This document shows positions 1,751 to 56,199 of a stretch of DNA of 57,013 nucleotides, piece by piece; position 1 is the first letter of the stretch, and each line of letters starts with the position of its first letter. The position numbers and the translations under genes are program-made. Location: positions 504,389-561,401 of the forward strand of contig NC_057719.1 of the NCBI RefSeq assembly GCF_004010195.1, read 5' to 3'. This DNA comes from Chiloscyllium plagiosum (taxonomy: Eukaryota). A model generated the notes under the pieces. It had not been told where the DNA came from, did no database searches, and worked only from the letters and a program-made list of their open reading frames with translations.

Positions 1751-1772
1751 TGAATCATTTCTTCTCTTTCTT

Positions 1773-4130: not shown

Positions 4131-4281
4131 CTTCAGCATCTGTACCTCAGGCTCGAGCTTTAAGCTGAATCCTGTCAGGACCTTTGGCTTGTTTTGAAAC
4201 TGTACCAGTGAGCTGTGTAATGACAGAATCTGTTCCTTCATTGATTCCAGTGCAGTGAAGGCCATTCTCAGTGAAGTCTCT
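4131..4281 (-). CDS. Nesprin-like helical exon ([41 protein letters not shown]...MLK)
   Basis: 151 nt, phase 2/0, AAG|GTAAAT donor, amphipathic-helix pattern. Confidence 0.8.
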
Positions 4282-25200: not shown

Positions 25201-28200
25201 ATGGCATCAGCTGCCAGAGGAAGTCATGGAGGCTGGTGCAATTGCAACATTTAAGAGGCATTTGGATGGGTGTATGAATAGGAAGGGTTTGGAGGGATAT
25301 GGGCCGGGTGCTGGCAAGTGGGACTAGATTGGGTTGGGATATCTGATCAGCATGGACGGATTGGACAGAAGGGTCTGTTTCCATGCTGTACATCTCTATG
25401 ATTCTATGACATGCTTTGGACATGCTGAGGTTATCCAAGGCGCCATAACAATGCAAGTTATTTCTGTCCAGTGAATAATCAGTTGGCTCTATGTTTGAGG
25501 TGATTGGTGGTAAAGGCGTGAACCTGAATTGCTGAGCCGCGCTATTCGGTCCACACAGGGTCCGACATCGGCACACCGGCCGCAATTGTCTCACCTCCCA
25601 GTTTCGGCAGAGCTCTGCCCGCATTTCCTCAACAATCTGCTTCTTCTGAGGGGTTAACACCATTGTGATTTTATCTGTTGCTTCAAGAAAATGTTCAATG
25701 ATTCCAGAATCAAAGCTCCTGATTGTTTCCTGTGAGGAACACAATATTAATCAGTCTCTGTTTACTGCCATTACATTGCCATAGCTTTTCAAGGGAGAAA
25801 GTTCTAGATTGTCACTGCCCTTCCTGTGAAGAAATGCTTCCTGATGTCGCCCCTAAACAGCCTGTCTCCATATTGACGGTTCAGTATCCTTGCTCCAGAC
25901 TCCCTCTCACCCGAGGCAATACCTTCTCTTGGTCAGCCCAGTCAACTCCTTCAATTGTAGAGTCTATAGGAACATCTTTTGGCCTGAAATTATTCAATCA
26001 GACTGCCTCTTAATCTTCTATATGTGAGGAAATACAATAAATGAATCCTCTGCTCCCTATTTAAACCCCTTAGTTCCAGAATTTCCAGCACCAATATTTC
26101 TCCTCTGTGGTTGTATGGAGTCGGAACAGAAGGTGCCCAACCTGTGACCCAGCCCATGGCCAATGGAGACCTGCAGGTGAGTGGCTACCTGGTGCTTCAC
26201 AATGAGTTCCTCTGGGGACCCTCTGTCCTCGAGGAACTGCATGGCCCCTCCAATGCAAGCTTCTATCCTTCTCTTCGATTCTTCAAAGTCCCGTTTGACA
26301 TCAACTTCTGACACCGTGCGCTCACTCACCTGGGCTGGCTCGGCACACGGCACGTCACTGCCCACCTAGGCCAGAGAGACGGAGGGTTAGGCACTGCTTC
26401 TCTCATTAACACACACACACACACACACACAGACACACACACACAGACACACACACACACACACTCTCTTTCTCTATCTCTCTCTCTCTCTCTCTCTCCA
26501 GGATCTACAATTTCAGAGGGATGTTAGTGTCTTAAAACAAAGGTCAAGAGGACGTTTCATCAAAGTGATCTGAATCATGAGAGGCCGTGATTAAGTAAAT
26601 GTGGAGAAACACTTCCCAGTGGCAAACGATGGGTAACTGTTGAACATGTTCAAGGAAGATTTATTTTTTCATGTTTTAAGGCATCAAGGATACAGAGAGA
26701 AAGCAGGAGGATGGCATTGGGATAGAATATCAGCCGTGAAGGGCCTACTCTTGCTCATTATTCTGATGTAGCCAGAAGGCACAGATTTAAAGTGACTGGC
26801 CAAAGAACTAGGGGTGAGATGGAATAAAAACTGTGAGTTCTTATGAATTGGAACATACAGGTGGTGGGAGCAGGTTAAATATGAGCTTCAAATAGGAGTT
26901 TAATTTGTTTGTAAAAAGGAATCACAATTCTAAGGAGAAAGAAAAGTAAATGAGTGGATTGACACCTCTTTCAGTATGATCGACTAAACCTCCTCGTGAA
27001 TCAGATTTAAAAGCTATTTGCTTCCATCGTCAAACTGGAATGTGCTGCCTGAGGGACGCAGTCCTCATGAATGCTGGAGACACTCAGACTGAAGACCAGC
27101 CAGAGAGAGAGTCCCTTATGTTACTGCTAGACTAGGTGTCTCGAATACTGCTGATTCAGCCACTGGATTACCAGTGCCAGCCTCTGGATTCCCTCTACCA
27201 CGTTGTGGATTGCCGGGTCAGGAACAATGTTTCAAAGAACAGTCACATTGAACTCAAAATATTAACTCTGCTTCTCGCTCCACAGATGTTGCAAGACCTG
27301 ATGAGTTTCATCAACATTTTCCTGGACCAACTCTGGATTTCTGGAGCAGTCATAGAGTCATGGAGATGTACAGCACGGAAACAGACCCTTCAGTCCAACC
27401 TGTCCATGCCAACCAGATATCCCAATCTAATCTAGTCCCATTTGCCAGCACCCAGCCCATATCCTTCCAAACCTTTCCTATTCATATATCCATCCAGATG
27501 CCTTTTAAATGTTGTAATTGTACCAGCCTCCACCACTTCCTCTGGAGCTCATTCCATTCACGTACCACCTTCTGTGTGAAAAAGTTGTCCCTTAGGTCCC
27601 TTTTATATCTTCCCCTCTCACTCTGAACCTATGCCCTCTAGTTCTGGACTCCCCCACCCCAAGTAAAATACCTTATCTATTTACCCTATCCATGCCCCTC
27701 ATGATTTTATAAACCTCTATAAGGTCACCCACTATCCCATCTACCTGCGATTCCACTTTCAAGGAGCTATGAATCTGCACTCCAAGGTCTCTTTGTTCAG
27801 CAACACTCCCTAGTTCCTTACCATTAAGTATATAAGTCCTGCTCTGATTTGCTTTTCCAAAATACAGTACCTCACGTTTATGTAAATTAAACTCCATCTG
27901 CCACTCCACAGTCCTTTGGCGCATCTGTTGTACTTTGAGGTAACCTTCTTCACTGTCCGCTACACCTCCAATTTTGGTGTCATTTGCAAACGTACTAACT
28001 ATACCTCCTATGTTCAAATCCAAATCATTTATAAAAATGAAAAGTAGCATTCCACTGGTCCCAAGCCTCCAGTCTAAAAAGCTACCCTCCACCACCACCC
28101 TCTATCTCCTACCATCGAGCCAGTTCTTTATCCAAATGGTTAGTACCCCCTGTTTTACCTGCAGTCTATGAGACTGGACAGAGGAAACCATAAAAAAGAC

Positions 28201-31200
28201 CTAGAATGATCAAAGAGACAATTGAAAATTTTTGTAAAGATACTGATATCTGAAAATCATCACAGAGTCAATAGGAAAAATTGATTATCTGGTTACCAAA
28301 CATGGAGACTCTGTCTGCTTCTTTGTGTCCTCGGCTGCTGCGTGTTCCTTAGAATAGTGCAGGAACTGTGAGATGTACGTTATTATTGACTTCTCATCAG
28401 GATTGCTGACAGCAATATCTGAGGAAAGAAAACCACTGCATCAAAGTGATAATAACATAAACCCCTAAACCCTTCATTATATAAACCCAATACCTTCACT
28501 GTGTAACCCCACAATCCTTTCTTTATACCAACCCAAATATCTTCACATACAAAAGCCCAAACCCTTCATCACATAACCCCCAAACCCTTTGTGATATAAA
28601 CCCCCAAATGCTTCATTACATAAACCCAAAATCCCTTCCTTATATAATCTCCCAGGTTCTTCATTATATAAATCTCCAATCCCTTAATATGTGAACAGTC
28701 AACCCCTTGATTATATAAACCCGAGTCACTTCATTATATAAACCTCCAGATCTGGATCAGATAAAGGAAAGAAACACGTGATTATATAAAACCCTAAACC
28801 CTCACCCAAATCGCTCATGGTGAAATCCTCCAAACCTAACAATTTATAAACATAATAAGCTTCAATTATATAAATAATTGATCAGATAAACTCCTGCACC
28901 TCTGAATTACATAACCGTCAAACCTGTCAATTACCTTTCTGTGTATAACTCGCTCCTGGATATCTGTTATTCTACATATAACCCTCCAAAACCCCCAATT
29001 AAATTCCAGTCTTGGCTTTCTATTATTTCACCTGTAAACTGCCCAAACCTAACTACTTTCCTCTCTTCCAATCTTTCTTCCTTCTTTCCCTCCTTGCCTC
29101 ACAGACGTTGGCCCTGACTCCTCTGTCTGACCCAGTTCTCACCCTGTGCTTCCAGCAGTCTGGGGATTTTCAGCTCCTGCTCTGCAACCTTGAAAACCAT
29201 TTCCAGGTTCTCCGTGTCTGACCTCTGCTTGAGCTCCGCCAGGTCCAGTAGGCCGGGTCGGAGAGCATTGATAATGGCAACAAAAGCCAGGCCATTTCTC
29301 CAACTGGTGCTGAAATCTCGGATAACGAATCCCAGGTCCCTGAAAGAGAGTATCTGTCATTTTTGTATCATGCATATCATATATTTGAAAGGGAGGATGT
29401 TCCTGATGGTGGATGTGTCCAGACCCAGGGGTCCCAGTCTGAGGATTTGGAGTGAGCCAATTAGGACAGAGATAAGGAGACATTTTTTCACCCAAAGAGC
29501 CTATGGTGAGCCTATGGAAGTCATTACCACAGGAAGTAGTTGATGTCAAAACATTGAATATATTCAAGCGGTGGCTAGATATAGCACTTGGGGTGAATGG
29601 GACCAAAGGTTATGGGGAGAAAGCAGCATTAGGCTATTGAGTTGGATGATCAGCCATGATGGTGATGAACGGTGAAGCAGACTCAAAGGGCTGAATAGCC
29701 TCCTCCTGATTCTATCTCCTATGTTTCGGTGTTTTTATATTCACAGAGCTGGGGAGGAACAGGTTTGGGGATTGGGAACTAAGTCGATAGCTCTTTCAAA
29801 GACTCAGCACCAGTATGAGGGGGCGAATGGCCTTCCTCCATATTACTGTAACTCCATGTGGGAATTGAACAATGATCCTTAACCATGAGCTCCTTACTCT
29901 GTCTTTTCCTGAACCCACTGCAGTAAAGTTGTTTCTGCTGACTTTTTCCGTCCTGCATGGATCAGTGTTTCCTCTCTCTGTGGAGATAATGCTGCTGGTG
30001 AGGAATTCAAAGCAGGTGAAGGCTCCATGGGGGTCTGTCTCAATGTGAGTCCACTGGCAAGTTTCTCAACCTGTTCAGAAAGATAACAAAATCAGGAGAG
30101 TCCTGGAAAGAGTAGATAGAGAAACTGTTCCAAATGGCAGAAGGATCAAGAATCAAAAGACACCAATTGACAGACACTGGGAAAAGAACTAAAGGTGACA
30201 TTGCTATAAATTCAGCCAATGGTATTATTGAAAGTCAGATTCCAGGCAGAGAGCTGGATTGACGATGCTGTGACTTTCAGAGGTGTGTTTTGCCCTGGTT
30301 TCTTTTAGAGAGAGATTGGGAGACAGGCGACAAGCAGTCAATGAGAAGATAAACAACTTGCGAAGCCTTGGATGTTTTTTAAAACTGGAACAATAGAAAC
30401 AGCCTGAATGGGTGTGGTCAAGCTCCCAGAGAACCCAGGGATTTTACGTTTAGCTTCGGCAGCTGTTATTGGGTCTCAGCAGGGTTGGAAGGCAATGAAT
30501 CTGTCTCAGCTGTTACATTCTCTCTCTAAGAATTGTCTTTTGATGTTCTTTCCTCCTGGATTGGAGAATGGCATGTGACATAATTTGCTTTCTGAATTTA
30601 CTTTTTTCCAAGGGTGTGTTTATGGGATGTTACTATATTGAATCAGTTATTGTTCAGTAGTAAAAATAACCTATTATTCTGTTAATTTTTCCAGTAGAGT
30701 TAAGTTATTCCAAGCTCTTCTTTCTTTTGTTAAATTTTTACTATGGTGTTTGAATAAATTGTATTTTGTTTAATGTCAAGTAGTTTTTCACCAATCAAAT
30801 CGCATCTGGAACAGAGCACCTCACATTTACCTTTAAGATAAGAAAAGATTCGGGTCTAGTTTACTTTCTTAATATATTTTGAGGGACTCTGATCTGGTCC
30901 ATGATGTTACAACATGGGGTAAGCCCTTCTGCTAATTAAACCAAGCATAGAGAAAAGCTCACCTCGCCTCTTAACCTATTAAAGTATGAGTGACAGAGAA
31001 CTACCCCAAATTTCACTAGTTAAACAAAAAAAATTTTATTCTTTAACTCCAAGAATGAACATTAAATAACTATTCACAACCCTAATCCTCCTTACTCTTT
31101 ACAAAATGTTATCTACCTCCCACTCTATGACAATGCACTGATCGGATAAAGTCCCTATTAAATTTACAAGAAATCAATTTTCAAAACCAGCCAGCAGTGT

Positions 31201-34200
31201 CGTTCCTCCACTGTAGATCTCCCTGGATCACCTTTGGTTTTCTGCTGCACAGATTTTTCATGTATTACAAAAGGTACCTATTAGAGAGACTGTTTTGAAT
31301 AGCAGTCATTCGATGGCAGAAGCTACTCTTTTTTTGGCTAACTGCCCAAAATGCCTGCTTTTATACCCCAAAACATCGGATCATCTCATTGGTTTGATGT
31401 TGCCAAAACAGTAAAATTCAAATTTGACTGGGTTTTTGTATCTTGGGGCATAATCTAAACTAAGAGAAAGTGAGGACTGCAGATGCTGGAGATCAGCTCA
31501 TTCCTGATGAAGGCCTCTTGCCCAAAATGTCTCTTCTCCTGCTCCTCAGATGCTGCCTGACCTGCTGTGCTTTACTAGCACCACACTCTCAGCTCGCATA
31601 ATTTAAACTGATTGGCTAAATTTACATTGTTGTGAAAACAACTCAGTATCTGAGTTACAGTTTAAATATTACATCTTCAAATTGTCAAATACACTTTGCG
31701 CTGCAGTCAGTCACATGACAGGTGCTTGCCAGCTTTTCACCTTTCACTCTCTCTTAAAGGTGAAAATGTGTTGCTGGAAAGGCGCAGCAGGTCAGGCAGC
31801 ATCCAGGGAACAGGAGAATCGACGTTTCGGGCATAAGCCCTTCTTCAGGAAACTCTCTCTTAAAGGTACAGTATATGCCTCCAACTTCATAACAATAACA
31901 ACAGACTATAAGTTTTATTTTTGCAATTTGGTTACTGTGGTGGTCAGTCACTGAACAGTTTCACATGAGGTTACAAATGTACTTTAAACAAAAGAACATC
32001 AAAGTTTACTACACAAAAATGTTTCAAAAATTCAAAGCTATAAAACACAGTTGGGAAAAGGATAATCATAAGCATCAAAAATAAAGACTCAGCCCATTTT
32101 CCAAGTAATATCCTTTATAAGCATTCAACCCAAGTGAAATATCACTTCAACTTTCACTCCTTATTTTCCGACTCAACTGATGAGGTTGCAAACACTTATT
32201 TCAGGTGATTTTCTGAATATTCCCAGATGTGATTCTCTCCATCTCCCCGAAGCTGAACTAAGGGCTGGAGCTAAAGCTTTCTTTTCAGCTCTGATGGTTT
32301 GCCTGGAGACAGTCTGACAGGTTTGGATCTTTACTTCTGAACTTCAGCCTACTTCCAGCTAATAGAACATGCTACTAGTTATGTCTCTAGCTCTCTTACG
32401 GGACTCTCTTGTGATACAGTGGTAATGTCCCCACCCCTGGACTAAGAGACCCAGAGTCAAGTCCCACCTGCTCCAGAGGTGTGTAATAACATTAATGATC
32501 AGGTTTATTAGAAATTATCTTCCTGGGGGGTGTTGACCTCTGGACAGAGAGCTAGGAAGGCTGGAAACAGGATGTTGCAGACAGCTGGCCTGACACAGCA
32601 GGGTGAATGGCCTCCTTCTGAACTGTAATCATTCTATAGTACACAGCGGGCTCCAGCATATAGTCTACAACCTCCACTAGGAACCACACAACAATTGGCT
32701 TTACCCCACATAAACAAACACCTTTAACCATTCTGTACAGAGTCACACAGTTTTTACAGCATCTAAAGAGGCTCTTTGGCCCATTGTGTCCATGCTGGTC
32801 CATGCTAATCCCGCTTTCCTGCTCTTGGTCTGTTGCTTTTTCGTGGCATGGTGTTCCAAATGCTCATGTAAATAGTTCTTCAGTATCTTGAGGATTCCTG
32901 CCTCTACCACCCTTTCAGACAGTGAGTTCCAGGTACCCATAAGCCCTTAGCTGATTTTCTATCTTCAAATCCCTACCATTTCACAAATAATTAGCTGTTC
33001 CCCTGCCCCTCGCCCTCTGGCGTCCCTCCTGTGGCCAGAGAGGGCTTGAAACTTAATGTCACAGCTCCTGCAATCCCACTGCAACCTTGGGTACATTTCA
33101 ATCGGGCCACCTGCATTTATCTATTTTCAAGCCAGTTAATAAAAACTGCTAATACTCTCCATGTACAGGAGGGGTTCACTCTGAGCTGTGAGAAACAACA
33201 TCCCCATTGCAACAAAACCAATGGTAATCCCACCCCCAAACCCAGCGCGTCTCAGTTTCACATTGGGGTAAGGCTATAGCTCACATGTGTGGTTACTGAA
33301 ATGGGAATCTACTGGAATGGGATTTTGGAGTATCCGGTTTCAGGGAGCCGGAGTGTGGAGAATAGTGTAGGGCATTTCTCAGTGCTGGGTGCTCCTTTGG
33401 CAGAGATAACGGTGCAGGTGTAGGAACTGAATCCTTTAAAATGACTCTCTGGCTAAGATTAGCTAGATATTAGTGAAATCAGGTGAGAGTAGTGTTAGAA
33501 TTTCGGAGCTTACGTCCATAGTCACCTAATATAATCAGTCTACCAATCGTAAGGAATTTTCAGGTATCTGAAAGTTTGTTGAGAAGCAGCCATTTAGATA
33601 TGATACATGAGGGAATCCAACAAATAAACATGTAACCCTTGACAGCATGGAGTGCTAACATGTGTGGATCTCATTAAAGTTGTAAAGGCAACATTCTGCT
33701 CTCTCATGGAAATGTCGGGGAACTCTTCCCTGGGTCTTCCCTCCACCTCTGCTGGTCCTCCTTCCAGCTGAAGAAGAACAGCTTCCTGAAGAAGAGTGAC
33801 CATTATAAGGACCGCTTGACAAGGAATGCTTACAGTACAACGACTCTCTGAGTGACATCGGTGAACCAGGTGGGCTTTTAACAATAACCAATTAGATCTT
33901 TGCAACCATCATCACTTTATTGAATATTCCAGATTTATAAATTGAATTTAAATCAGCTATCCCAATGGGATTTGAACCCACATCCTAAGAGCATTAATCA
34001 GAGTACCTGGATCATTAGCCCACTGACATTCCTACTACAGCATCATCTCTTGAGGTGGTGCCAAGAGAGAAAGACAGCCTTTACCCCAAAGAATCTAGTA
34101 AAATACACACCTGGAAATACAATATAATGGACCAAATCAGCCCCAAGATGACGGTAGGATTCCCATCCACAATGTCCAGGACATTAATGTTCACCAACTT

Positions 34201-37200
34201 TATCTGAAATATCAAAGCAAGCAGCATTACTGAATAATTCGGGTTGTAGCTCTGGCAAAAAGTGAATACCCTAGCACATCAAAAAACAGAAAATGAAATA
34301 ACTGACCGATTTACTCCTTAAAAAGTTCAGAGCAGTTGTGACGTTGCTCATCCAGTGAATGGGATTGGAATGTGCTCTATCATGTGCCTACAGGAAAACA
34401 AACCAAAAATGTGTTACGTCACATTACAATGAACAACATCTCCATCCCTCATCCTTCACCGGTCTCAGATCATCTCAGGTTTCTCATTAGACTCCCTGCT
34501 TTCAGTGTGCCTCCAAACTCCATTTCCAACTATTTCAAATATTTGTGGATAATCCCTTGAATCATGGTTCTGCCCTGGCACAGTAATGAAATAGATTTCA
34601 TTAAAATTAATCTCACTATACATTAAAAGTGAAATCCTGTGTGTGCATGTGAGAAAGGTAAAGTCTCCCTCCCTGCCCACCTTGAGCTCTCTGAAGCCAC
34701 TGACTAATACATCTTTCTCCAACACCTCTCCAACAATTCACAGGAAACACCAGGCTCACTGAGGTCACGAGGTTCCAACAAGCTAACACCAAGGAACCAC
34801 GTGGCACCATGTGGACCATCTTATCAACACAGTGGTTAGAAAAGGAGAAGGTTTTAGCTCAGAAAACATGACAATTTAACCTGTTTCCACATTGTAGGGA
34901 TTCTAAGGATTCAGCTGAAGGTGGATGAGGGGACAATGGCCATCACAAGTTGCTGTGTCCTGTCCACTGACTGAAAGGGTGATTAATTTAGCATAAACTG
35001 TGAAACAGAACACATCAACAAGTGCTCAGGGACAGAGAGCATTCCTCATCAAGCGGTCCTTGTACTGGTCACTCTTCTTCAGGAAGTTGTCTTCTTCAGA
35101 TGGAAGATGGACCAGCAGAGGTGGAGGGAAGACCCAGGGAAGAGTTCCCCTAAATTTTACTGAGGGAGCAGAATGTTTCCTTTACAACTTTAATGAGATC
35201 CACACATGTTAGCACTCCGTGTTAACAAGGGTTACATGTTTATTTGTTGGATTCACTCATGTATCATATCTAAATGGCTGCCTCTCAACAAACTTTCAAT
35301 ACCTGAAAATTCCTTACGAATAGACTGATTATGTTAGGTGACTGTGGATGTAAACTCCCAAACTCTAACACTACTCTTATCTGATTTCACTGATATCTAT
35401 CTAATCTTAGCCAGAGAGTCACTTTAAAGGATTCTACACCTGCACCGTTATCTACGGTGTCCCCTATCTATGACCACTCCTATTTCTCAGTACATATGTA
35501 CATTAAGGACACCCCTGCCTCTCTTCATTCCTCTCTGTCTTTAAATTATCGAATGGCTTATCTGACATCCAGGACTGGAGCAGCAACAATTCCCTCAAAT
35601 TAATTATTTGAAAGGCTGAAAAATCATGATCCACTCCCTGCTCCAAACTCTTATTAGTGGTTCCAACCCTCTCCCTGGCAACAGTTGATATTAAACCAAT
35701 ATGTTCACAATCTTGGCATTACATTTAGTCCTGAGATGCACTTCTGCCCCAATACCCCCGCCATCACTAAGATCAACCGTTTCCACCTCAGTGACATCAG
35801 CCGGCTTCACCTGGGTCTTGGCCTATCTACGGCTCAAGACCTTATTCATGCCCTTTTGACCTCTCTACTCAGTCTTTCCAATGCACCACTGACAGGTCTC
35901 CCACCTTCTATCTCTCATCAACTTGAGGCAATCTAAATCGTTGCTCTCCATGTCTTAACTCACTGAGCCACGGTGCCAGGCTCAGTGCCAAAGACCTGAC
36001 AACTATGGCGTTCCCTGGTAGGCCGTCCCCACCAGCAGTATCCAAAATGGTATACTTCTTGCTGAGGGGAATTCCTGCTCTGTCTGTTGGTTCTCTTTCC
36101 TTCCCCTGACAGTAACCCAGTTGTCCTTATCCTGTGTCTGGGGAGTGACCACCTCTCTGTACCTCCTCTCAATTTACCCTTCAGCCTCCCGGATGATCCG
36201 CAGTTTATCCAGCTCCAGCTTCAGTTCCCTAACCCGGATTTCAAGGAGCTGGAGTTGGGTGCACTTCTTGCAGATGTGGTTGACAGAGACATGTGTCGTG
36301 TCTCTCACCTGCCACATTGTGCAGGAAGAACATGCAATTGCCCTAACAGAGATCATGGTACGTATTGGCACCAATGATATAGCCAAGAAAGGGACTGGGG
36401 ATCTGAAACGTGACTGCAGAGAGTTAGGTTGGAAGCTGAAGAGCAGGACGAGTAGAGTGGTGATCTCAGGTTTGCTACCGGTGCCTCGAGATAGTGAGAT
36501 GAGGAACAGTCAGCGAATGCAGCTGAACACGTGGCTGCGAGGCTGGTGCAGGAGGGAGGGCTTCAGATACCTAGACCATTGGGATACCTTCTGGGGAAGG
36601 TGGGACCTGTACATGAAGGACAGGTTGCATCTGAACTAGAGGGGCACAAATCTCCTGGGTGGGAGATGTGCTCATGTGATTCGGGAGGATTTAAACTAGT
36701 TTGGCGATGGGGGGGGGGGGAGCCAGAGCTACACATCTGAGAGGAGGGCAGTTGTAGATGGGGCAGTGACAGGATGTACTGAATCTATCGGGAAGGTTTC
36801 TCACGAGATGAAACAAAGGAATCGGTTAAAATGTGTTTGCTTTAACGCTAGGAGTGTCAGAAATAAGTGTGATGTACTTAGAGCATGGATTAGTATTTGG
36901 GGCTATGATGTTGTGGCCATAACAGAGACGTGGGTTTCACAGGGGCAGGAATGGTTGCTAGATGTTCCAGGGTTTATAACGTTTATAAAGAACAGGGAGG
37001 GTGGAAAAAAGAGGAGGGGTGTAGCATTGCTAATCAGAGAGTGCATCACAGCTACAGAAATGAGGGTTGTTGAGGAAGGTTTGTCTACTGAGTCAGTATG
37101 GGTGGAAGTTAGGAACAGCAAGGGAGCAGCCACCTTATTGGGGGTTTTCACAGACCACCTAATCGCAGTAGGGAGATCAAAGAGCTCATAGGCAGGCAGA

Positions 37201-40200
37201 TTTTGGAAAAATGCAAAAGTAGCAGGGTTGTTGTCATGGGTGATTTCAACTTTCCCAATATTGACTGGAACCTACCTAGTGCAGATGGTTTGGATGGAGT
37301 GATTTTTGTCAGGTGTGTTCAGGAGGGTTTCCTGACTCTGTATGTAGACAGGCTGACGAGGGGAGAGGCCATTTTGGATTTGGTGCTCGGCAATGAGCCA
37401 GGACAGGTGTCAGATCTCGCGGTGCGAGAACACTTTGGTGACAGTGACCATAACTGCCTCACATTTACCATAGCCATGGAGAGGGAAAGGAGCAGTGACC
37501 AAGGGAAGATAGTTAATTGGGGAAAAGGAAATTATGATGCTGTCAGACGGAAGTTGGGAAGAACAGATTGGGAACAATTGCTCCACAGAAAGGGCACAGC
37601 AGACATATGGAGACTGTTTAAGGAGCAGTTGTTGCGAGAGATACATAAATTTGTTCCTCTGAGACAGGCAAGAAGGGGTAAGATTAAGGAGCCTTGGATG
37701 ACAAGATCAGAGGAGCTTCTTATCAAAAGGAAGAAGGCAGCTTACGTAAGGTGGAGGAAGCAAGGATCTAGCACAGCTTTAGATAATTACCGGCTTACTA
37801 GAAAGGAGCTCAGAAATAGACTGAGGAGAGCCAGAAGGGAGCATGAAAAAGGCTTGACAGAAAGGATTAGGGAGAACCCAAAGGCATTTTACTCACACGT
37901 GAGGAATAGAGAATGATCAGGGAGAAGGTAGGGCCGATCAGTGATAGCGGAGGGAACTTGTGCGTGGAGTCTGAGCAGATAGGGGAAGCCCTAAATGAGT
38001 TTTTTGCTTTGGTTTTCACTAAGGAAAGGGACCTTGTTGTGAATGAGAATTTGGAGGAGCTGGGAAACAGGCTTGAACAGATCAATATTGATAAAGTTAA
38101 TATGCTGGACATTTTGGCAAACATTAAGATTTTAAGTCCCCAGGGCCAGACCAGATTTATCCTAGGCTGCTCTGAGAAGTGAAAAAAGGAGGTTGCTAAG
38201 CCACTGGCAAAAATCTTTGCTTCCTCACTTTCCATGAGAGTCGTACCAGAGGATTGGAGGAAAATTGTTCCTATTTTCAAGAAGGGGAATATGGAAATCC
38301 GTGACAATTACAGACCAGTAAGTCTTACATCTGTGGTCAGCAAGGTTTTGGAAAGAATTCTGAGGGATAGGATTTATGACTATTTGGCAAGGCATAGCAT
38401 GATTAAAGGCAGTCAGCATGGCTTTGTGAGGGGCAGGTCATGCCTCACAAATCTTATTCAGTTCTTTGAGGAGGTGATGAGACAGGTCGATGAAGGTCGA
38501 GAAATGGATGTGGTGTATATGGATTTCAGCAAAGCACTTGATAAGGTTCCCCATGGTAGGCTCATTCATAAAGTCAGGAAGTATGGGATACAGGGAGATT
38601 TGGCTGTCTGGATTCAGAATTGGTTGGTGGACAGAAGGCAGAGTGTGGTTATAGATGGAAAGTATTCTGCCACACGGCTCTATGCTTGGGCCTCTGCTTT
38701 TGTAGTTTTTATAAATGACTTGGATGAGGAGGTTGAGGGGTGGGTTAGTAAATTTGCTGATGACACAAAGGTTGGAGGTGTCATCGATAGTGTAGAGGGC
38801 TACTGCAGGCTGCAGAGCGACATAGACAGGATGCAGAGCTGGGCTGGGAAATCGCAGATGGAGTTCAGCCTGGATAAATGTGAAGTGATGCATTTTGGAA
38901 GGTCGAACTCGAATGCTGAATATCAGATTAAAGACAGGATTCTTGACAGTGTGGAGGAAAAGAGCGATCTTGGTGTTCAAGTGCATAGATCCCTCAAAGT
39001 TGCCACCCAAGTGGATAGGGTTGTTAAGAAAGCATATGGTGTTTTGGCATTCATTAACAGGGAGATTGAGTTTAAGAGCTGTGAGGTTTTGCTACAGCTC
39101 TACAAGTCCCTGGTGAAACCACACTTGAAATATTGTGTCTTGTTCTGGATGCCCTACAATAGGAAAGATACAGAGGCTTTAGAGAGGGTGCAAAGAAGGT
39201 TTACCAGGATGCTGCCTGGACTGGAGGACTTGCCTTACAAAGAGAGGTTGAATAAGCTCAGACTTTTCTCTCTGGAGAGAAAGAGGTAGACAAGTGACCT
39301 GATCGAGGTATACAAGGTAATGAGAGGCATGGATAGAGTCAATGGCCAGAGACTTTTCCCCAGAGCAGGATTTAAGGTGTTAGGAGCAACGTATAGAGGG
39401 GACAATTGTGGTAGGTTCTTTACGCAGAGAGTTGTGAGTGCATGGAATGCGTTACCAGCGGTGGTGGTGGACGCAGAGTCATTAGGGACATTTAAGTGAC
39501 TGCTGGACATGCACATGGATAGCAGTGAATTGAAGGGTGCGTAGGTTAGGTTATTTTATTTTACATTAGGATTAATCCGCGGCACGACATCATGGGCCAA
39601 AGTGCCTGTTCGGTGCTGTACTTTTCTATGTTCTATGTTATAATTAGGAATCACTGCTTCAAAATTGAGGTACACATTTACATGTTAAATTAAAATTGAG
39701 GAGTGTACATATCTCATTTGGGGATGTGAGAGACTATTGTAATAATTCTTTTCTCGCAGAGTTGTGAGACTTTGGAACTCTCTCTCTGAAAGAGTCCTTG
39801 AACATTTTTAAGGTAGAGGTGGATAGATTCTTGGCAAAAAATAAGGGGTAAAAGGTTATCAGTTGTAGGCAGGAATGCAGATTTGAGGTTACAATCTGCT
39901 CAACTAGGATCTTATTAAAGATGAAGCAGGCTTGAGGGGCCAAGTGGCCCTTTTCCATCTGTTTATTTGTATGCCCAGCAAGCATCTCCTTCCCCTTCAG
40001 TAGTGAGCTCCACATCCTCACCATTCTCTGAGGCAAGGGTTTTCCCAGTTGGATTTATTAGGATCTCTCTTATACTGACAGCCACTAGTTTTGCTCTCCC
40101 TCGGAAATGCCAACCCCCTTGATAATTTTAAAAAGCCTCCTCTTTTCTAAAGAAAAGATCCCCAGCCTGTTCAGTCTCTTCCTGGAAGAAAGTGAGGACT

Positions 40201-43200
40201 GCAGATGTTGGAGAGTTAGAGTTGATAAAGCGTGGCACTGGAGAAAGTACAGCAGGTCAGGCAGCATCAGAGGAGCAGGAGAGTCAACATTTCAGGCATA
40301 AGGCCTTCTTCAGGTCCTGAAGAAGGGTCCTGCCTGAAACATTGACCATCCTGCTCCTCAGATGCTGCTTGACCTGCTGTACTTTCTCCTATCACCTTTA
40401 CTCTATCACCTTTCAGACTCTTCCTGATAGCCGTCACTGTAGATGTGACTGGAATCAGTTGGTGAGGAATGGGAGAGGTTGTTGGATTAAATCTTGAGGA
40501 ATGCAAATGGAGTTGGCAGCCTTAGGTTCAAGCAGGCTGAATGGCCTTTTCATTGGTCTCTGTGTTGTGACCTAGCTCATCACACTAAGGCCTCAGGCTG
40601 ATTAACTCCACCAGTTACTGTATTGCTCAGTTCCTTTCTCACCATCTGTTGTCCTGACAGAACCTCCAGTAAATCCAAGAGTCTGTGTCCATCCCGAAGA
40701 TCCTGGAACAAGTCCTGGATGACAGATGGGGGTTTGTGCTGTTAGGATGGAACAGAAGAATGTTAGTCTGATTCATTTTACACAGCCACACCCCTCCATT
40801 CACTGAGCGGCTCACTGCATAGCACTCTTGCCTCAAGGTATGATGGGACTCAAATCCCACTCCAGAGCCTTGAGTATTTTTTAGTTCATTTGTGGGATGC
40901 TGGTGTCACTGGCAGAGGGCAGTTGCGAGTCAACCACATTGCTATGGTTCAGGAGTCACAAGTAGGTCAGACCAGGGTAAGGATGGCAGATGTTCATTAG
41001 TGAACCAGACAGGGTTTCCCCAACAACCTATGATTGTTTCATGGTCATGTTTTGACTCTTAAGTCCAGATTTTTACTGATTTCAAACTTCACCGTCTGCC
41101 GTGGTAGATTCAAATTTAAAACATTACCTGAGTTTCTGTAATAGACTAGCGATAATACCACTGGCCATCACCTCCTCTATTATAAAACATTAATATACAA
41201 TTGAAAATCTTTTTAGTATCAAACTTGAGGGAGAGAGTGGGAGCTGCACTGTCAAGTGAGATGTTAAACCTCACAGGTGGATCCCGCGGCACCAAGTCCA
41301 CAAAGAGGACTGATTCGCAAGATGACGGTTTTGTTTTATGAAGAGAGATTGAGCAATTCAGACTGAAATTCTCTGGAGTTGAGAAGAATGAGAAAGAGAT
41401 TTAATTGAGGTATAAAAGATGCTAAAGCAGATTGAAGAAAGTAGGCACAGAGGGGACGTTTCCTCATGTGGGGCAATCTAGAACGCGAGGTCATTGTTCA
41501 GGGATAAGGGGAAGCAGATTTAAAACAGAGATGAGAAGAAACTACTCTGTCAAAGGACTGTGAATCTGTGGAAGTGCAGTGGCTGCTGAGACTTCAAGCA
41601 AATTTAAAGAGGAGATTGACAGAAGTTTTAATCAGTAATGAATTGAAGGGTTATGGAGAGAGGGCAGGAAAGTGGAGTTGAGGCCAAGATGAGATCATGA
41701 TTTGGAGGTGCCGGTGTTGGACTGGGGTGAACAAACTTAAAAATCACACAACACCAGGTTATAGTCCAACAGGTTTAATTGGAAGCACTAGCTTTCAGAG
41801 CGCTGCTTCTCCGCAACTACTCGATGAAGGAGCAGCGCTCCGAAAGCTAGTGTTTCCAATTAAACCTGGTGGACTATAACCTGGTGTTGTGTGATTTTTA
41901 AAGATGAGATCAGGCATGAGCGGGATTGAGGGGCTGAATTGCCCACACCTACTCCTGGTTCTTATGTTGTTGTGTTCTCCATAGCTTCCCCAGCCGATAT
42001 ATATCAATCAACCAATATCATTAATGTAAGTGATCTCCTCATTGCCTGTTTACTGTGTAGAGGCTGGATGATGTATGTCCTGTGTTACAGCAGGAAGTAC
42101 ACCTCAACAGTATCTCACTGGGACTTTGGAATGTTCCAAGTTTGTGGCGCTATAGAAATGCATCTGAAATTTGCGTCATCCCTTAACTCTTACCTTTGCT
42201 AGTTGTGCGTTGACCCAGTTTGTGAAAGTCCGGTTTTGAACCTTTTCATGTTCAGCTGTAAAATGTAAGATATGCGCAGTTATAAAAGCATTCTGACACC
42301 CTCCCAGCTCATCGAAGTAACAGCAAGGACAAGGTGAACTGTGTTCAAGGGTATGGAAAGAAGGGAAGGTAGAAATTACAGGGTGTTGACATGGTGGGGG
42401 AGCCAGGAGACTGGAGAAACATTCATTATGGCCTTGTACATAAAGGCTATAAAGATAAATCCAGTAATTACAAACCGGTCATTTAACTTCAATGGTGTTT
42501 GAACATCTAGAAACAACAATTTGTGTTAAAATTAGTAGTCACATGGAGAAGACAAGGTGGTTAAGAAGAGTCAGCATGGATTTCTAAAGAGGAAATTGTG
42601 TTTAACTTGCTGGACCTTTTTTGAAGTTATGAGGGCAATGATGCTGATGCGGTGTACAGTGTACAGTGACTTTCAAAAGGCATTATTCATATTTATATCA
42701 TTCTCTCACAGAATGTGGACCATTTTCTGAACAAAAAAGGCTTCGGAAATCTGAAGATTTGGAAATCCTCTTTCTCTTAGGGTTAACGTGTAGGTTCAGT
42801 TGGCAGTTAGAAAGGTAAGTGCAATGTTAGCATTCATTTCAACAGGGCTAGAATACAAGAGCAGAGATGCCCTGCTGGGGCTGTATAAGGCTCTGGTCAG
42901 ATCACAATTGGAATATTGTGAGCAGTTTGGGCCCCTTATCTAAGGAAGGATTTGCTGGTGTTGGAGAGGTCCAGAGGAGGTTCCCAAGAGTGATCCCAGT
43001 GATGAAGGGCTTGTCATATGAGAAGTGGTTGAGGTCTTTGGGTCTGTACTCGGGATCAAGTTTAGAAAGATAAGGAGGGTTCTGATTGAAACTTCCAGAA
43101 TACTGAGAGGCCTAGATAGAGTGGATGTGGAGAAGATGTTTCCACTAGCAGCAGAGAATAGGACCAAAGGGCATAGCCTGAGAGTGAATGGACAGCCCTT

Positions 43201-45979
43201 AGGAACTGAGATGAGGTGGAATTTCTTCAGCCAGACGGTGGGGAATCTGTGGAACTCACTGCCGCAGAAGGCTGTAGAGGCCAAGCTTTCTAGTGTTTTA
43301 AGACAGATAGATAGGCTCTTGATTGGTGACAAGATCAAGGGCTATGAGGAGAAGGCAAGAAAATGGGGTTGAGAAACATATCAACCATGATTGAATGGTG
43401 GAGCAGACTCAGTGGGCCAAATAACCTAATTCTGCTCCTATATCTTATGGCCTTAAGTAGTCCAACTTCTATAGGTTGACCCTACTGCCCTTAGGTTGAC
43501 CCAGGATTTTGACCCAGTGACAGTGTCAGAATGACAATATATTTCTAAGTCAGGTTGGTGACTGGCTCAGAGGGGAATCTGTCAGTGGTGTCCCTAGTAT
43601 CTGCTGTTCTTGTCCTTCTAGATGGGAATGGTCATGGATTTGGAAGGTGCTGTCTGAGGAGGCGAATCTCTGTGGTATATTTTGAGGATGGTACACACTG
43701 CCGCTACTGAACGACAGTGACAGAGAGAGTAAATCATAGAATGATAGAGTACAGAGGAGGCTGGATGCCAAACCTACGCTTAATTTAAACTCAACCTACT
43801 TTCCAATATTGGGCCCACAGCTGTGAATGTTTTGACATTTCAGGTGCTCATCCGAGTACTTTTTAGAGGTTGTGATATTTCACCTCAACCACCCTCCTGG
43901 CAGTGCACGCCAGAACCTTAACACCCTCTGGATGCAGTACTTTTTTAATTCACCTAAACCTTCTGCTTTCCACCTTAAAAGTGTGCCTCCTTGTTTTTTT
44001 TTTCCCAAGGGAGACTCTTCTTCTTCCTCCTCCTCACAGTACACTGGATGTGGGCAGCCAGCTCAGAGTCAGTCCACTGACACAAATGGAGAATCCTTCA
44101 CTCTGATCCAGCTCCCTCAGAGCCAGCTCTCAGAGTGAACAGAACCTCTGATACTCCTGTTTCTTTTTTTAACCCATGTGATACTCCTGTTTAATTTTTT
44201 TGCCTCCTTCTTAATAATCCTTCAAATAAGGGGAACAGCTGCTTTCTATTCACCCTGTCCACGCCGCTCACAATCTTATACACCTCCAGTAAGCAGGTGG
44301 GACTTCACCTCAGGTCCAGAGGTAGGGACATTACCAGTTCACCACAAAACAGCCCCTCCCAGTAGAATTAACAAAAGCAAGATCTAACTGTTCCTATGTG
44401 TATTTAAATGAGTAATTAGACATAATTAAGTAACAATTGCAATATCCTTTGATTCCTGAAAAACTAGGGTTTATATTTATAGGAACTAAATGGAATATTA
44501 AAGTTTCTGAGTCCAAAATCACAATGTTACTATTTACACGTGATCAGCTTTTACATACGTGTACAGTAATCTCTTGATAACAAGCAGCACTGTATTAGTG
44601 ATAAAGAAGTAACCTGCTAGATCAAGTTGGGGCAAGTCAATCAGTTGGCAGGTACCTCACATCTTGCTGAATGTTTAAACCTGTTTAAGAACAAAATGAG
44701 TATGTTGGAATTCTCCAGTTTCAGATTACCCCTTTGCTTGAGTCTCCATGCTTCATGTGCAAGTCTCTACAAGGTGATCACATCACCTTCTCCACCTTCA
44801 AACACTCACTGTTACCCATGCCACATACTCGCATTCTCAAACCCCTCGGACTGCCCGAGAGTCTCCAGAAAGTTTTTAAAAATGCTCTCTTGCTCCAGGA
44901 CACCTTCTGAGGAGATATGGCTGTTAAGTCTCAAAGCATTTCCTGATGGTTATAACTGGTGCGTGACCACTGACTGGAAGTAGCTGGGGAGAAAAAGCAG
45001 TTTTATGTTTAGATAGAAATAAGATTGTGTACCACGTGACCTCTTACAACCATCTTACAGCCAATTTAATAAAGAATTAGTTGGGATAAGGCTGTTGTCT
45101 TGCGAGCACATAATATGGAGCTAAATCTTATCCAATTTTGGCAAAGTGCTAATTTTTAATGGGTTTCATGGATGGTTTTTCTCGATGAGGCCTGGCACGT
45201 TTTATTGCATTATTGTTGTAAATTTGCCTTGTTAACTCCTTACTTGCCCCCCTTTGTCTGATGCTGGCCTGATTCCACAACACGCCAAAGCCTAAAGTAC
45301 TTGCTGCTGTCATGACATCCCAGGATTCCTGGTGTTGGCACCATCTTTAAAGGGCTGTGTGCACCCAGTCAAGCACCAGCTGCCCTGCATGGTTCAGGAT
45401 ATCGGTCCCGGACTTGGTAGATATGGGGAAACTGGCGTCCTGCTTCACAGGTAGGGAGCTGGAGGTGGGCGGGTTGATGCAGGTGAGGGACATCCTTTTC
45501 TCTCAGGTACAATAATGAAGGCCATGACACTAGACCCTGGCAGCCTAGTCTGAGGTTAACAGACTGGTCAGTGCAGTCTCAGCTGTCTGGACGAATGCCC
45601 AGCCCTGTATAAAGAAAGTCAATGACCTTCTCCACTCCAACAATTCAACTGCCACCATCCTCTCTCTCTAACATATCACATTCACTCTCCCTCTCCATCT
45701 CCCACCAAGGCTCATGCTCCACTACTCTCATTATCACATATTCTGCATATCAATAAGGTAAGATTAAGTAAAAATGAGGGTGACAATGACACAGTAATCC
45801 CCATTAATAGGCCTCTCATTGCTCCCTAGTGTGAATCTTGTCTCAATGTCCGGATCTCAGTTAGAAATTGCAACTTGTTGCTCCCAATGTAAGGAAAGGC
45901 CTCGCTCGACTTCTCACACCATTCTTCCAAATTTCTCACCATGGTCCGTGTCGTCAGGGAATAGGAAGATTCTGATCAT
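4131..45979 (-). CDS. SYNE2: Nesprin-family (SYNE2-like) giant actin-binding spectrin-repeat protein, multi-exon gene, 3'-incomplete (continues past left edge; no KASH exon in window)
   Basis: Manually joined GT-AG exons with matching phases: 45979-45940, 42255-42194, 40738-40643, 34387-34307, 34203-34111, 30070-29898, 29339-29143, 28418-28297, 26365-26189, 25729-25595, 23647-23504, 20759-20583, 20123-19989, 18572-18429, 17879-17683, 16223-8195, 7320-7172, 4281-4131 (sum 10302 nt). CH1/CH2 motifs [83 protein letters not shown] resemble nesprin-2. The exact paralog is uncertain. Confidence 0.8.
5545..5745 (-). mobile_element. CR1 3' tail
   Basis: Matches the 3' end of 1773-1980. Confidence 0.8.
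6290..6550 (+). mobile_element. 5'-truncated HE1-like SINE
   Basis: GGTTCGATTCC B box, HE1 core, attctatgattctat tail. Confidence 0.75.
7172..7320 (-). CDS. Nesprin-like gene exon ([16 protein letters not shown]...NEISE)
   Basis: tttctttccctag acceptor, AAG|GTACTG donor, 149 nt, phase 0/2, open. Confidence 0.8.
7368..7662 (+). mobile_element. CR1 3' end
   Basis: [19 protein letters not shown]...FKRHLD; ctatga repeats. Confidence 0.88.
8195..16223 (-). CDS. Giant about 8.0-kb internal exon: about 2,676 aa Ser/Glu/Gly/Gln/Thr/Asp-rich, probably disordered, with about 400-aa tandem repeats
   Basis: Stop-free ORF 8174-16243 with no TE content; acceptor tttaacAG at 16224-16225 (phase 2, fits upstream exon); donor CAG|GTATCC at 8195 (phase 0, fits downstream exon). 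Confidence 0.88.
9050..15130 (-). repeat. Coding tandem repeat, about 5 units of about 1.2 kb with a 2406-bp higher-order dimer
   Basis: Marker positions 10153, 11332, 12559, 13741, 14965; spacings 1179/1227/1182/1224; identical antisense ORFs at 9535 and 11941. Confidence 0.95.
16430..16935 (-). mobile_element. Old L2-like LINE 3' remnant
   Basis: Degenerate similarity to L2 3' ends (...ttaaaacactgc...gcttttggtcacct); related remnant at 35560-35950 (+). Confidence 0.45.
17282..17388 (-). CDS. Possible alternative 107-nt exon ([14 protein letters not shown]...QAPL)
   Basis: CAG acceptor, TGG|GTGAGA donor, open in phase 2 in / phase 1 out; no homology support. Confidence 0.35.
17683..17879 (-). 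CDS. Nesprin exon ([23 protein letters not shown]...SSPQTG)
   Basis: Strong tttttttcctag acceptor, phase 0; helical translation; donor AGG|GTCAGC (phase 2) is less certain. Confidence 0.8.
18429..18572 (-). CDS. Spectrin-repeat module exon C, copy 2
   Basis: Near-identical to 23504-23647, intact. Confidence 0.85.
19576..19797. mobile_element. Short palindromic Penelope-derived insertion with hammerhead-like core
   Basis: TSD ctgtcacatgctttg (19561-19575/19798-19812); about 90-bp inverted arms. Confidence 0.8.
19707..19734 (+). ncRNA. Minimal hammerhead ribozyme-like motif
   Basis: CTGAAGA-A-GGGC-TTAT-GCCC-GAAAC-GTC: CUGANGA box, 4-bp stem II, GAAA box, palindromic ACGU, GUC site. Confidence 0.6.
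19989..20123 (-). CDS. Spectrin-repeat module exon B, copy 2
   Basis: Near-identical to 25595-25729 (KIKMML vs KITMVL), intact. Confidence 0.82.
20583..20759 (-). CDS. Spectrin-repeat module exon A, copy 2
   Basis: Near-identical to 26189-26365, splice sites and frame intact. Confidence 0.8.
20803..20890. repeat. (CA)n microsatellite; paralog (CA)n(CT)n at 26409-26497
   Basis: Direct inspection. Confidence 0.95.
21331..22068 (-). mobile_element. CR1 3' fragment present only in duplication copy 2
   Basis: [20 protein letters not shown]; empty site at about 26925. Confidence 0.9.
22345..23203. mobile_element. Penelope-like element fragment (GIY-YIG endonuclease) in inverted hairpin configuration
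   Basis: [20 protein letters not shown]...RIHEH...AREFLE on both strands; arms 22352-22760 and 22795-23203; flanked by a 93-bp direct repeat. Confidence 0.9.
23504..23647 (-). CDS. Spectrin-repeat module exon C, copy 1
   Basis: 144 nt, phase 0/0, [29 protein letters not shown]...GHQ, CAG|GTAAT donor. Confidence 0.87.
23711..23924. mobile_element. Short palindromic Penelope-derived insertion; intact hammerhead-like core on minus strand (23815-23842)
   Basis: TSD ccaatccatgaac; empty site visible in the paralogous copy at about 18622-18640. Confidence 0.8.
24540..24857 (+). mobile_element. Ancient Deu-domain-like SINE remnant (paralogous copy about 19240-19575)
   Basis: tttgtggaatcctactgtgtacaaatt...catttcctacatt...cttcaaaaaatacttcattggc resembles the SacSINE/AmnSINE Deu domain as recalled. 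Confidence 0.5.
24858..25409 (+). mobile_element. CR1 3' fragment present only in duplication copy 1
   Basis: [17 protein letters not shown]; ctatgattctatg tail. Confidence 0.9.
25595..25729 (-). CDS. Spectrin-repeat module exon B, copy 1
   Basis: 135 nt, phase 0/0, ETIRSFD...LCRNWE, GAG|GTGAG donor. Confidence 0.87.
26189..26365 (-). CDS. Spectrin-repeat module exon A, copy 1
   Basis: 177 nt, phase 0/0; FEESKRRIE...[14 protein letters not shown] resembles a nesprin spectrin repeat. Confidence 0.85.
27349..28150 (-). mobile_element. Internally deleted CR1 fragment
   Basis: [16 protein letters not shown] motifs and 3' tail. Confidence 0.88.
28297..28418 (-). CDS. Nesprin CH2 C-terminal exon ([23 protein letters not shown]...)
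   Basis: 122 nt, phase 1/0, PDEKSI.TY..QF motif. Confidence 0.93.
28450..28990. repeat. Degenerate AT-rich minisatellite (about 25-bp unit, core ttcattatataaaccc)
   Basis: Recurrent ccttcattatataaacccc variants. Confidence 0.75.
29143..29339 (-). CDS. Nesprin CH2 exon ([25 protein letters not shown]...[13 protein letters not shown])
   Basis: 197 nt, phase 2/1, canonical CH2 motifs. Confidence 0.95.
29385..29725 (+). mobile_element. CR1 3' end
   Basis: [12 protein letters not shown]; tail tcctatgttt. Confidence 0.8.
29898..30070 (-). CDS. Nesprin CH1-CH2 linker and start of CH2 (VEKLASG...[14 protein letters not shown])
   Basis: 173 nt, phase 0/2, Ser/Pro-rich linker typical of nesprin/calmin ABDs, GTAAGG donor. 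Confidence 0.92.
31462..31595. mobile_element. Degenerate Penelope-derived short insertion
   Basis: TSD gcataat(c/t)taaact; same terminal gagaaagtgaggactgcagatgctggag; decayed CTGATGA core. Confidence 0.7.
31762..31851 (-). mobile_element. Single-arm Penelope-derived insertion with intact hammerhead-like core (31821-31848)
   Basis: 16-bp TSD actctctcttaaaggt; minus strand reads CTGAAGAAGGGCTTATGCCCGAAACGTC. Confidence 0.78.
34111..34203 (-). CDS. Nesprin CH1 exon ([31 protein letters not shown])
   Basis: 93 nt, canonical CH1 C-terminal motif, CAG|GTGTGT donor. Confidence 0.95.
34307..34387 (-). CDS. Nesprin CH1 exon ([27 protein letters not shown])
   Basis: 81 nt, ttttcctgtag acceptor, N...AL.FL motif. 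Confidence 0.88.
35960..39640 (+). mobile_element. Near-full-length decayed CR1 LINE (ORF1 zinc-finger/leucine-zipper plus SGNH esterase; ORF2 APE and RT) with inverted 5' end
   Basis: [18 protein letters not shown] on minus; [49 protein letters not shown] on plus; stops and frameshifts. Confidence 0.93.
40185..40411. mobile_element. Older palindromic Penelope-derived insertion
   Basis: TSD ttcag(t/a)ctcttcctg; imperfect inverted arms centred on cttcttcaggtcctgaagaag. Confidence 0.72.
40643..40738 (-). CDS. Nesprin CH1 exon ([32 protein letters not shown])
   Basis: 96 nt, phase 0/0, ATG|GTGAG donor, DL..D..DG..LL.LLEVLSG motif. Confidence 0.95.
41330..41970 (+). mobile_element. CR1 3' fragment
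   Basis: tatgaagagagattgag...ttcttatgtt tail. Confidence 0.8.
41698..41900. mobile_element. Palindromic Penelope-derived insertion, second family
   Basis: TSD aagatgagatca; arms about 41737-41809 and 41828-41901; GATGA-A-GGAGC-AGC-GCTCC-GAAAGCTA core; nested in a CR1 tail. Confidence 0.75.
42194..42255 (-). CDS. Nesprin CH1 exon ([20 protein letters not shown])
   Basis: ttttacag acceptor, AAG|GTAAGA donor, CH1 helix A motif. Confidence 0.92.
42400..43450 (+). mobile_element. CR1 fragments
   Basis: RT remnant and [15 protein letters not shown] 3' end. Confidence 0.82.
45940..45979 (-). CDS. Candidate first coding exon ([13 protein letters not shown])
   Basis: GACACCATG Kozak-like context, 40 nt, strong G|GTGAG donor, phase 1 matching the next exon. 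No homology support. Confidence 0.5.
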
Positions 45980-49793: not shown

Positions 49794-50111
49794 CAGACTA
49801 AACCAATAGCAATCAAACCACCTCCTCCCCTATAACTCTTCATACACCACCTCCGGCCACTGCTTTCTCACTCAACAGTTTCTATTACCCGGACAAAGAT
49901 CCCAGCCATGTCCCAATCCCCAGCCCAATTTCATATTTCTTTGTTGGTAATTCTTGCGAGCAAGGTTCCAGGGTAGCCTGGATTAACAATGCCGGAGCTA
50001 ACAATGTCAGAACAGGCCATTTGGCCCAAATACAATGTCTGGTGTTCATGGTTCATTTGAACCTCCTCCTATCTTTCCACATCTATATCCACCACTCTAA
50101 CTTTCTAATTG

Positions 50112-54225: not shown

Positions 54226-54452
54226 TTTCCCTCACAACAATAAATATTTGCTTTGTTTCTACTCTCGCAAAATCTTTCAGAATTTTAAAGATGTCTGTTT
54301 GGTAGTGCTGTATATCTCTATGACGTTATGGTAACTGCCCCTCCCACACCAGTGTTTACCAAGGGAAAAGTGACACAGCTAGTCTATCCTTTCCTGATAT
54401 GTGAACCCAATCTAAAGATGAAATCTATAACTTGGAGATACATATGCGCAAG

Positions 54453-56002: not shown

Positions 56003-56199
56003 CGTGTGCAGTGTTCTAGAAGCTTCTCCAGTCGATGCAGTTGGTGATTGACCTGGTTGTTGATGGAGAGCCAACTTTCCTCCAGGTTATGGACCTGTGT
56101 ACCCAGCTCTGGGCAGCTCACAATGCCCAGGAGAGTGTGCCCGCTGCTCAGTCTCTGTTCCACTTGGGCCTGGGTCCTAGTGAGGCTGCTCCTGATCGC
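56003..56199 (-). CDS. Orphan spectrin-repeat-like exon beyond the assembly gap
   Basis: Pyrimidine-rich acceptor ...tgacAG; AIRSSLTRTQAQVEQRLSSGHTLL...ELGTQVHNLEESWLSINNQVNHQLHRLEKLL has the spectrin helix B/C pattern (G..L, L...W..I.......LE). Confidence 0.6.

Follow-up and report, generated by a model that had tools for sequence, protein, structure and literature searches.

Introduction

In two earlier studies, nesprin-2 is a tether of the outer nuclear membrane that reaches F-actin through its CH domains, SUN proteins through KASH, and kinesin light chain through the LEWD stretch (PMC11844729, PMC3646009). Mini versions with the CH domains, a few repeats, and KASH rescue depletion in one of these accounts (PMC11844729); in the other, the repeats of nesprin-2 are less conserved than those of nesprin-1, with repeats 11-13 and 49-53 of nesprin-2 proposed as binding regions and repeats 3-5 standing out in nesprin-1 (PMC3646009). 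Calmin is described as consisting of CH domains, a disordered middle, and an ER transmembrane anchor, and the ancestral SYNE3 gene is believed to be the source of the CH domains of CLMN (PMC12416146). The literature on shark, elasmobranch, or cartilaginous-fish nesprins and on SYNE2-ESR2 synteny, mainly freely accessible papers, yielded no description of the architecture of a shark nesprin-2.

Here we analyzed a 57,013-nucleotide stretch of Chiloscyllium plagiosum DNA (the window), and propose from sequence comparison, with a probability of roughly 0.9, that the gene it carries is the shark orthologue of SYNE2 (nesprin-2 giant), which is a known gene with a new structural form and no new gene family. 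Like the nesprin-2 giant of bony vertebrates (gar W5MW17, Xenopus XP_002933763.3, thrush A0A8C3V6R4), it has a CH pair with a long linker and a rod that is colinear apart from internal gaps and falls in the same clade, and its orthologues keep the region matching PDB 6XF1, LEWD, and a nesprin-2-like KASH end. Unlike these proteins, it has lost about 400-510 aa of early repeats, a linker of ~60-70 aa has become 600-2,700 aa of repeats, and a large part of the center is absent from the ray models (gar 1690-3474 corresponds to Hypanus 1576-1645), which when complete reach 2,401-4,830 aa, against 6,666-7,504 aa for bony-vertebrate nesprin-2. Nesprin-1 giant of Hemiscyllium ocellatum (XP_060687141.1) likewise has two CH domains and a rod block homologous to that of the window gene at 22% identity, but the two genes lie in different clades and on different chromosomes, and within this shark family the early repeats are retained in SYNE1. 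As in calmin, a disordered region follows the CH-CH pair (PMC12416146); the window gene, however, has a spectrin-type rod and its orthologues a KASH domain, for which nesprin-3 is a poorer match than nesprin-2 (30.5 vs. 49.0 bits). The closest engineered parallel is mini-nesprin-2G, in which the CH domains and the C-terminal part are likewise kept and most of the rod is dispensable (PMC11844729); mini-nesprin-2G keeps the first two repeats, which are lost in the shark gene, and the shark protein adds a giant insert.

Exon Organization of the Locus

Seventeen minus-strand exons, running from 42255 to 4146 and all bounded by AG/GT, gave 3,416 stop-free codons when spliced (table 1). The total becomes 3,429 if the first exon of the first-pass annotation is added, and the model of that annotation had 3,434. 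We rejected its start exon (45979-45940) as the orthologous first exon, because the N-terminal exon of four other sharks matched nothing in the window, with local scores of 32-34 at best vs. self-scores of 101-133. Exons C, E, and G gave Pfam CH matches, exon F holds the long linker between the CH domains, and Pfam finds two CH stretches in orthologues; the order in the window was CH1-CH2, then directly the rod block that starts near residue 800 in other vertebrates, the giant repeat exon, and rod again. The closest database proteins were H. ocellatum XP_060684994.1 and its Chiloscyllium punctatum counterpart (97% in the CH alignment). The top Atlas cluster for the CH-plus-cassette part was 'Nesprin-2 (Fragment)' (0.93), which we took as a lead only, and the Pfam suggestions HEAT_GCN1 and DH_ALS2 on the cassette were dismissed as noise, no single stretch passing. 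SYNE2 adjoins ESR2, and no neighbor gene was found in the window.

Table 1. Features of the nesprin locus, with window coordinates.
Feature	Coordinates	Strand	Evidence and remarks
Intact later-rod exon, same gene family	56003..56199	-	Gar SYNE2 ~4853-4911; upstream of CH exons
Exon B, CH1 start	42194..42255	-	AG/GT; 95% to Carcharodon, 100% to C. punctatum orthologue
Exon C, CH1	40643..40738	-	Pfam CH E=0.0013; orthologue matches
Exon D, CH1	34307..34387	-	Orthologue matches
Exon E, CH1 end	34111..34203	-	Pfam CH E=0.0028
Exon F, long inter-CH linker and CH2 start	29898..30070	-	Orthologue matches; a contig piece of run X5 ends at the donor
Exon G, CH2	29143..29339	-	Pfam CH E=3e-14
Exon H, CH2 end, phase-0 donor at the deletion junction	28297..28418	-	
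Intron replacing the lost spectrin-repeat exons	26366..28296	-	1,931 bp; LINE-like fragments and GA/GT microsatellite
Cassette copy 1	23504..26365	-	Exons I 26365-26189, J 25729-25595, K 23647-23504; 152 aa of rod
Cassette copy 2	18429..20759	-	Exons I2 20759-20583, J2 20123-19989, K2 18572-18429
Exon L, end of retained rod block	17683..17879	-	Orthologue matches; spliced to exon M in a contig of run X1
Giant exon M	8195..16223	-	8,029 bp, 2,676 aa stop-free; about six units of ~340-410 aa
Exon N, after the insert	7172..7320	-	86% to C. punctatum 1437-1486; 46% to Heptranchias
Exon O, rod resumes, last exon found in window	4146..4281	-	93% C. punctatum, 65% Heptranchias, 53% rays

One further exon of the family (56199-56003) had AG/GT ends and matched Carcharodon 2378-2441 at 64%, thrush at 46%, and Hypanus at 45%; it lies upstream of the CH exons, beyond a gap of 500 N (~55367-55866), and is likely a misplaced contig. 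The gap is adjoined by a 10-bp satellite of ~900 bp (54450-55366). Two long LINE-like copies (36022-39639 and 50109-54226) carry plus-strand open reading frames resembling reverse transcriptase and are 85-91% alike in parts.

Loss of the Early Spectrin Repeats

The first-pass annotation had reported an in-phase join of the CH2-end exon (28297) to 26365 across a short, repeat-rich intron, and had read it as a deletion of the early spectrin repeats; all of this was borne out. Exon H ends and exon I starts in phase 0, and the intron between them holds repeats and is without nesprin coding sequence, its longest open stretch on the coding strand (ORF 28101-27676, 142 aa) presumably representing a fragment of LINE reverse transcriptase. 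When the intervening block was searched by tblastn against the whole window with chimaera, gar, bird, and shark SYNE1 queries, the best match reached only E=0.2; in the control search, the retained block of the chimaera matched exons I, J, K, and L at E values of 5e-10 to 7e-7. In the window, the CH2-end motif and the retained block are 56 aa apart, against 496 in chimaera, 564 in gar, 527 in thrush, 568 in Xenopus, 456 in lizard, and 640 in shark SYNE1, which puts the lost block at ~440 residues relative to chimaera and ~510 relative to gar. A spectrin repeat has ~106 aa, and at this size the loss would amount to about four to five repeats. The block itself was measured in residues.

The same H-to-I join is present in the H. 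ocellatum RefSeq model XP_060684994.1. It was absent among the RNA joints listed for the region 16000-35000 (4 of 24 runs, swamped by repeats), which is evidence neither for nor against it; run X1 came from a relative, and its RNA nature is a guess.

A Duplicated Three-Exon Cassette

The rod block directly behind the junction begins with three exons (I, J, and K) that occur as a cassette twice in the window, four times in H. ocellatum, and not at all in the C. punctatum model. Copy 1 aligns to chimaera ~751-904, gar 816-932, and thrush 793-915. Copy 2 differs from it by 10 nucleotides and 4 amino acids, and the flanks are 88-94% identical with shifting offsets; since they also carry different insertions, and since H. 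ocellatum has four copies, an artefact of collapse or haplotypes is unlikely. The duplication spans 18236-26929, and its 152-aa unit is not a whole number of spectrin repeats. A contig spliced from K to I was recovered from run X5. Copy-2-type letters were found at the K exon of copy 1 in DNA run X13, and thus the K-I join of run X5 fits splicing between the copies; alternatively, the contig may be a back-splice.

The Giant Repeat Exon and Its Variation

In exon M, a short motif recurs six times at a spacing of 337-409 aa. The exon has four long self-matches, each offset by a multiple of 3, among them a 2,406-bp higher-order repeat (94%). In the encoded stretch, S, E, G, Q, T, and D abound and aromatics are scarce, and on account of this composition it is predicted to be disordered. 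Tandem Repeats Finder returned 0 rows for the exon, the repeat period being above its 500-bp limit; no stretch passed in Pfam, where a DUF6808 suggestion was taken as noise, and one repeat unit was without a usable match in the Atlas. Exon L is joined to exon M in the X1 contig. Between the corresponding rod blocks, gar has ~70 aa, thrush ~60, Pristis and Hypanus ~620-650, Heptranchias 1,460, and Cetorhinus 1,840. A repeat insert predicted to be disordered is thus a feature of most shark and ray versions examined; the Carcharodon model skips it, through either splicing or annotation.

Phylogenetic Position of the Gene

From the fast-evolving CH domains and the missing repeats, the first-pass annotation had suggested a nesprin paralog separate from SYNE2, to be sought by CH-domain phylogeny. 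The phylogeny pointed elsewhere. In the CH tree (43 rows, 262 columns, with SYNE1 and SYNE2 rows hand-picked from the matches by name and score), chimaera and elasmobranchs (96/90) formed the sister group of 14 SYNE2 rows from bony vertebrates, and the clade uniting both had 100/99. The tree of the retained block, with 26 of the 28 rows tried (two gave no match), had the same arrangement, with 97/97 against SYNE1. This arrangement follows the species tree, a grouping of the window lineage with SYNE1 occurred in neither tree, and an AU test on a 22-row subset rejected a position outside SYNE1 plus SYNE2 (p=0.0033). The separate-paralog reading is thus unsupported, the immediate outgroup being the undeleted chimaera orthologue and the whole lineage being sister to bony-vertebrate SYNE2. 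Against that reading, the first-pass annotation had set a sole SYNE2 aligning colinearly without a gap: the data do point to SYNE2, but to a gapped one. Both trees were built without calmin or SYNE3 rows. Because calmin is absent from the tree and the ESR2 linkage unread, we allow a small probability of hidden paralogy. In the CH tree, the stem leading to bony-vertebrate SYNE2 is short and weakly supported (86/77), and an ancient sister duplicate with reciprocal loss could therefore give the same tree shape. Aligning 10 full-length sequences with MAFFT yielded nothing informative.

The block lost from the sharks was scored in the chimaera as well. It reached 725 against paddlefish SYNE2, above the 691 of thrush against paddlefish SYNE2, and 501 against shark SYNE1. 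Its scores against the SYNE2 of thrush (433), Xenopus (392), and lizard (482) were all below that of shark SYNE1, as expected from fast tetrapod SYNE2 rates, though this gives no support to the SYNE2 assignment.

The FHOD1-binding region, LEWD, and the terminal KASH were seen in orthologues only, outside the window. Hypanus 2590-4813 is colinear with gar SYNE2 4597-6864 (36%), and its 26-residue LEWD stretch is identical to that of gar. It matches nesprin-2 of PDB 6XF1, which we take to be the FHOD1-binding part, with 100.5 bits. The Pfam KASH match of Hypanus has E=3e-23, and its KASH scored 49.0 bits with nesprin-2, 45.7 and 45.1 with nesprin-1, and 30.5 with nesprin-3, the last requiring a gap, in a comparison made without a full-length SYNE1 C-terminus. 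Nesprin-4, for which KASH structures are presumably present in the PDB, gave no match at E up to 10. Since nesprin-2 and nesprin-1 are only 3 bits apart, the KASH domain argues against nesprin-3 and nesprin-4 more than it argues for nesprin-2. LEWD and KASH are found in all four ray species with models reaching the end, and Pfam KASH in both that were scanned. SYNE1 of H. ocellatum (XP_060687141.1), which keeps the early repeats, lies on a 114.7-Mb contig, and the orthologue of the window gene lies on one of 120.5 Mb.

Distribution of the Loss in Cartilaginous Fishes

The early block is missing from the orthologous models of all 13 elasmobranch species retrieved: H. ocellatum, C. punctatum, Carcharodon, Cetorhinus, Scyliorhinus, Heptranchias, Mobula, Hypanus, Hemitrygon, Pristis, Narcine, Amblyraja, and Leucoraja. 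When the chimaera block was compared with 16 models (those of the 13 species, two isoforms, and that of the window itself), the best match had E=0.043; the deletions in the other species are known from predicted gene models. The nearest outgroup, Callorhinchus milii LOC103189761 (XP_007908456.2), is 59% identical to the window gene over the CH region and 42% over the cassette and also has a ~630-aa repeat-rich stretch at the insert position, but unlike the window gene it keeps the early repeats (aa ~293-750, with Pfam Spectrin_SYNE1 at 526-704). Because the block is absent from 13 of 13 elasmobranchs and present in the chimaera, parsimony places the loss on the elasmobranch stem. The early repeats were likely lost as one in-frame multi-exon block in the ancestor of sharks and rays, as far as gene models and sequence comparison can tell.

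A length-free phmmer search with the retained block, itself incomplete, gave 24 matches with no undeleted elasmobranch SYNE2 among them; the sole elasmobranch match with the block at its canonical position was H. ocellatum SYNE1, at 48 bits. One SYNE2-clade model was retrieved per species in these searches, which were incomplete and not genome-wide. A further central gap of ~1,600-1,900 aa (gar ~1690-3500) was observed in two elasmobranchs, Hypanus and Scyliorhinus, and in an older chimaera model; part of this region is kept in Heptranchias. In Amblyraja radiata, the cassette and downstream rod are internally repeated (294-333 and 1151-1190, with gar 1336-1690 matched twice). The shortest complete orthologue seen, Narcine bancroftii XP_069771897.1, goes from CH to KASH in 2,401 aa and, if the model is right, would be a natural mini-nesprin-2.

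Alternative Origins of the Gene

The gene might instead be a third giant nesprin that gave rise to calmin and nesprin-3 elsewhere but was never split in cartilaginous fishes, where the true SYNE2 would have been lost or missed. Such a gene would combine in a single chain CH domains that bind actin, a disordered block like that of calmin, a spectrin rod, and KASH; in the window gene, a giant low-complexity exon follows soon after the CH domains. It is a real alternative because the CH domains of calmin are thought to derive from the ancestral SYNE3 gene (PMC12416146). The tree shape is compatible with a close ancient sister of SYNE2, and the Amblyraja orthologue (XP_032882344.1) is called 'calmin' by NCBI, most other orthologues being labeled 'nesprin-2-like' or 'uncharacterized'. 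However, this Amblyraja row nests among the rays inside the SYNE2 clade of the CH tree, and of the best 120 of 335 matches to the chimaera CH region (proteins of 386-1,231 aa), none is named calmin and all score highest against a SYNE2 or SYNE1 reference. The ray KASH fits nesprin-2 better than nesprin-3 (49.0 vs. a gapped 30.5), and LEWD, listed for nesprins 1, 2, and 4 in PMC11844729, is present. An unsplit third nesprin would also require the absence of SYNE2 from all 14 chondrichthyan species sampled, and we regard it as distinctly unlikely.

We give a still smaller chance to a whole-genome-duplication copy of the SYNE4 lineage that retained its CH domains. The long elasmobranch branches in the CH tree would suit such a copy, but the ray KASH found no nesprin-4 counterpart (E up to 10). 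The SYNE4 region presumably lies in small, gene-loss-prone duplicate segments; the orthologues of the window gene, by contrast, are on large chromosomes, for example one of 70.8 Mb in little skate. In PMC10115646, macrochromosomes are those over 40 Mb, and ohnologues kept only in chondrichthyans form a category, to which a SYNE4-lineage copy could belong.

Comparably slim is the prospect of a cartilaginous-fish duplicate of SYNE2 beside an undeleted SYNE2. A tandem copy would leave a later-rod exon upstream on the same strand, as found at 56199-56003, but this exon lies beyond the 500-N gap by the 10-bp satellite and the true first exon is missing, which argues for misordered contigs. An undeleted sister should moreover score at least the 153 bits of the chimaera against the retained block, and none appeared among the 24 matches of the length-free search; only one model per species was retrieved. 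That the early exons are merely missing from the assembly is barely credible, since, despite the imperfect assembly nearby (the gap at ~55367-55866 and the displaced exon) and an H-I junction not among the RNA joints listed, the sequence from 28297 to 26365 is gap-free and the block is absent from the models of 13 independent species.

Implications for Nesprin-2 Function and Evolution

If the gene is the shark SYNE2, its product would by orthology act like nesprin-2 giant, with the CH pair on F-actin and KASH on SUN proteins in the nuclear envelope, and its LEWD would bind kinesin light chain. That both ends of the deletion are in phase 0 and that a long rod is not strictly required (PMC11844729) probably explains why the deletion was tolerated. 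A loss of early repeats in SYNE2 and not in SYNE1 also fits the pattern of repeat conservation in PMC3646009. Judging from its composition, the 2,676-aa insert may serve as a soft, flexible, extensible spacer that replaces folded repeats.

The best reading of these results is a natural deletion experiment on nesprin-2 giant that has run since before the shark-ray split, which PMC10115646 dates to ~286 million years ago. On this reading the early repeats could be dispensed with; what was kept comprises the CH pair, the part matching the FHOD1-binding structure, LEWD, and KASH, and a formerly short linker became an insert that varies about fourfold among species. The database label 'calmin' for the skate gene should be taken with caution. 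The shark and ray proteins would thus offer a map of what a tether between nucleus and actin needs, and a means to test whether force can be carried by a disordered spacer in place of folded repeats.
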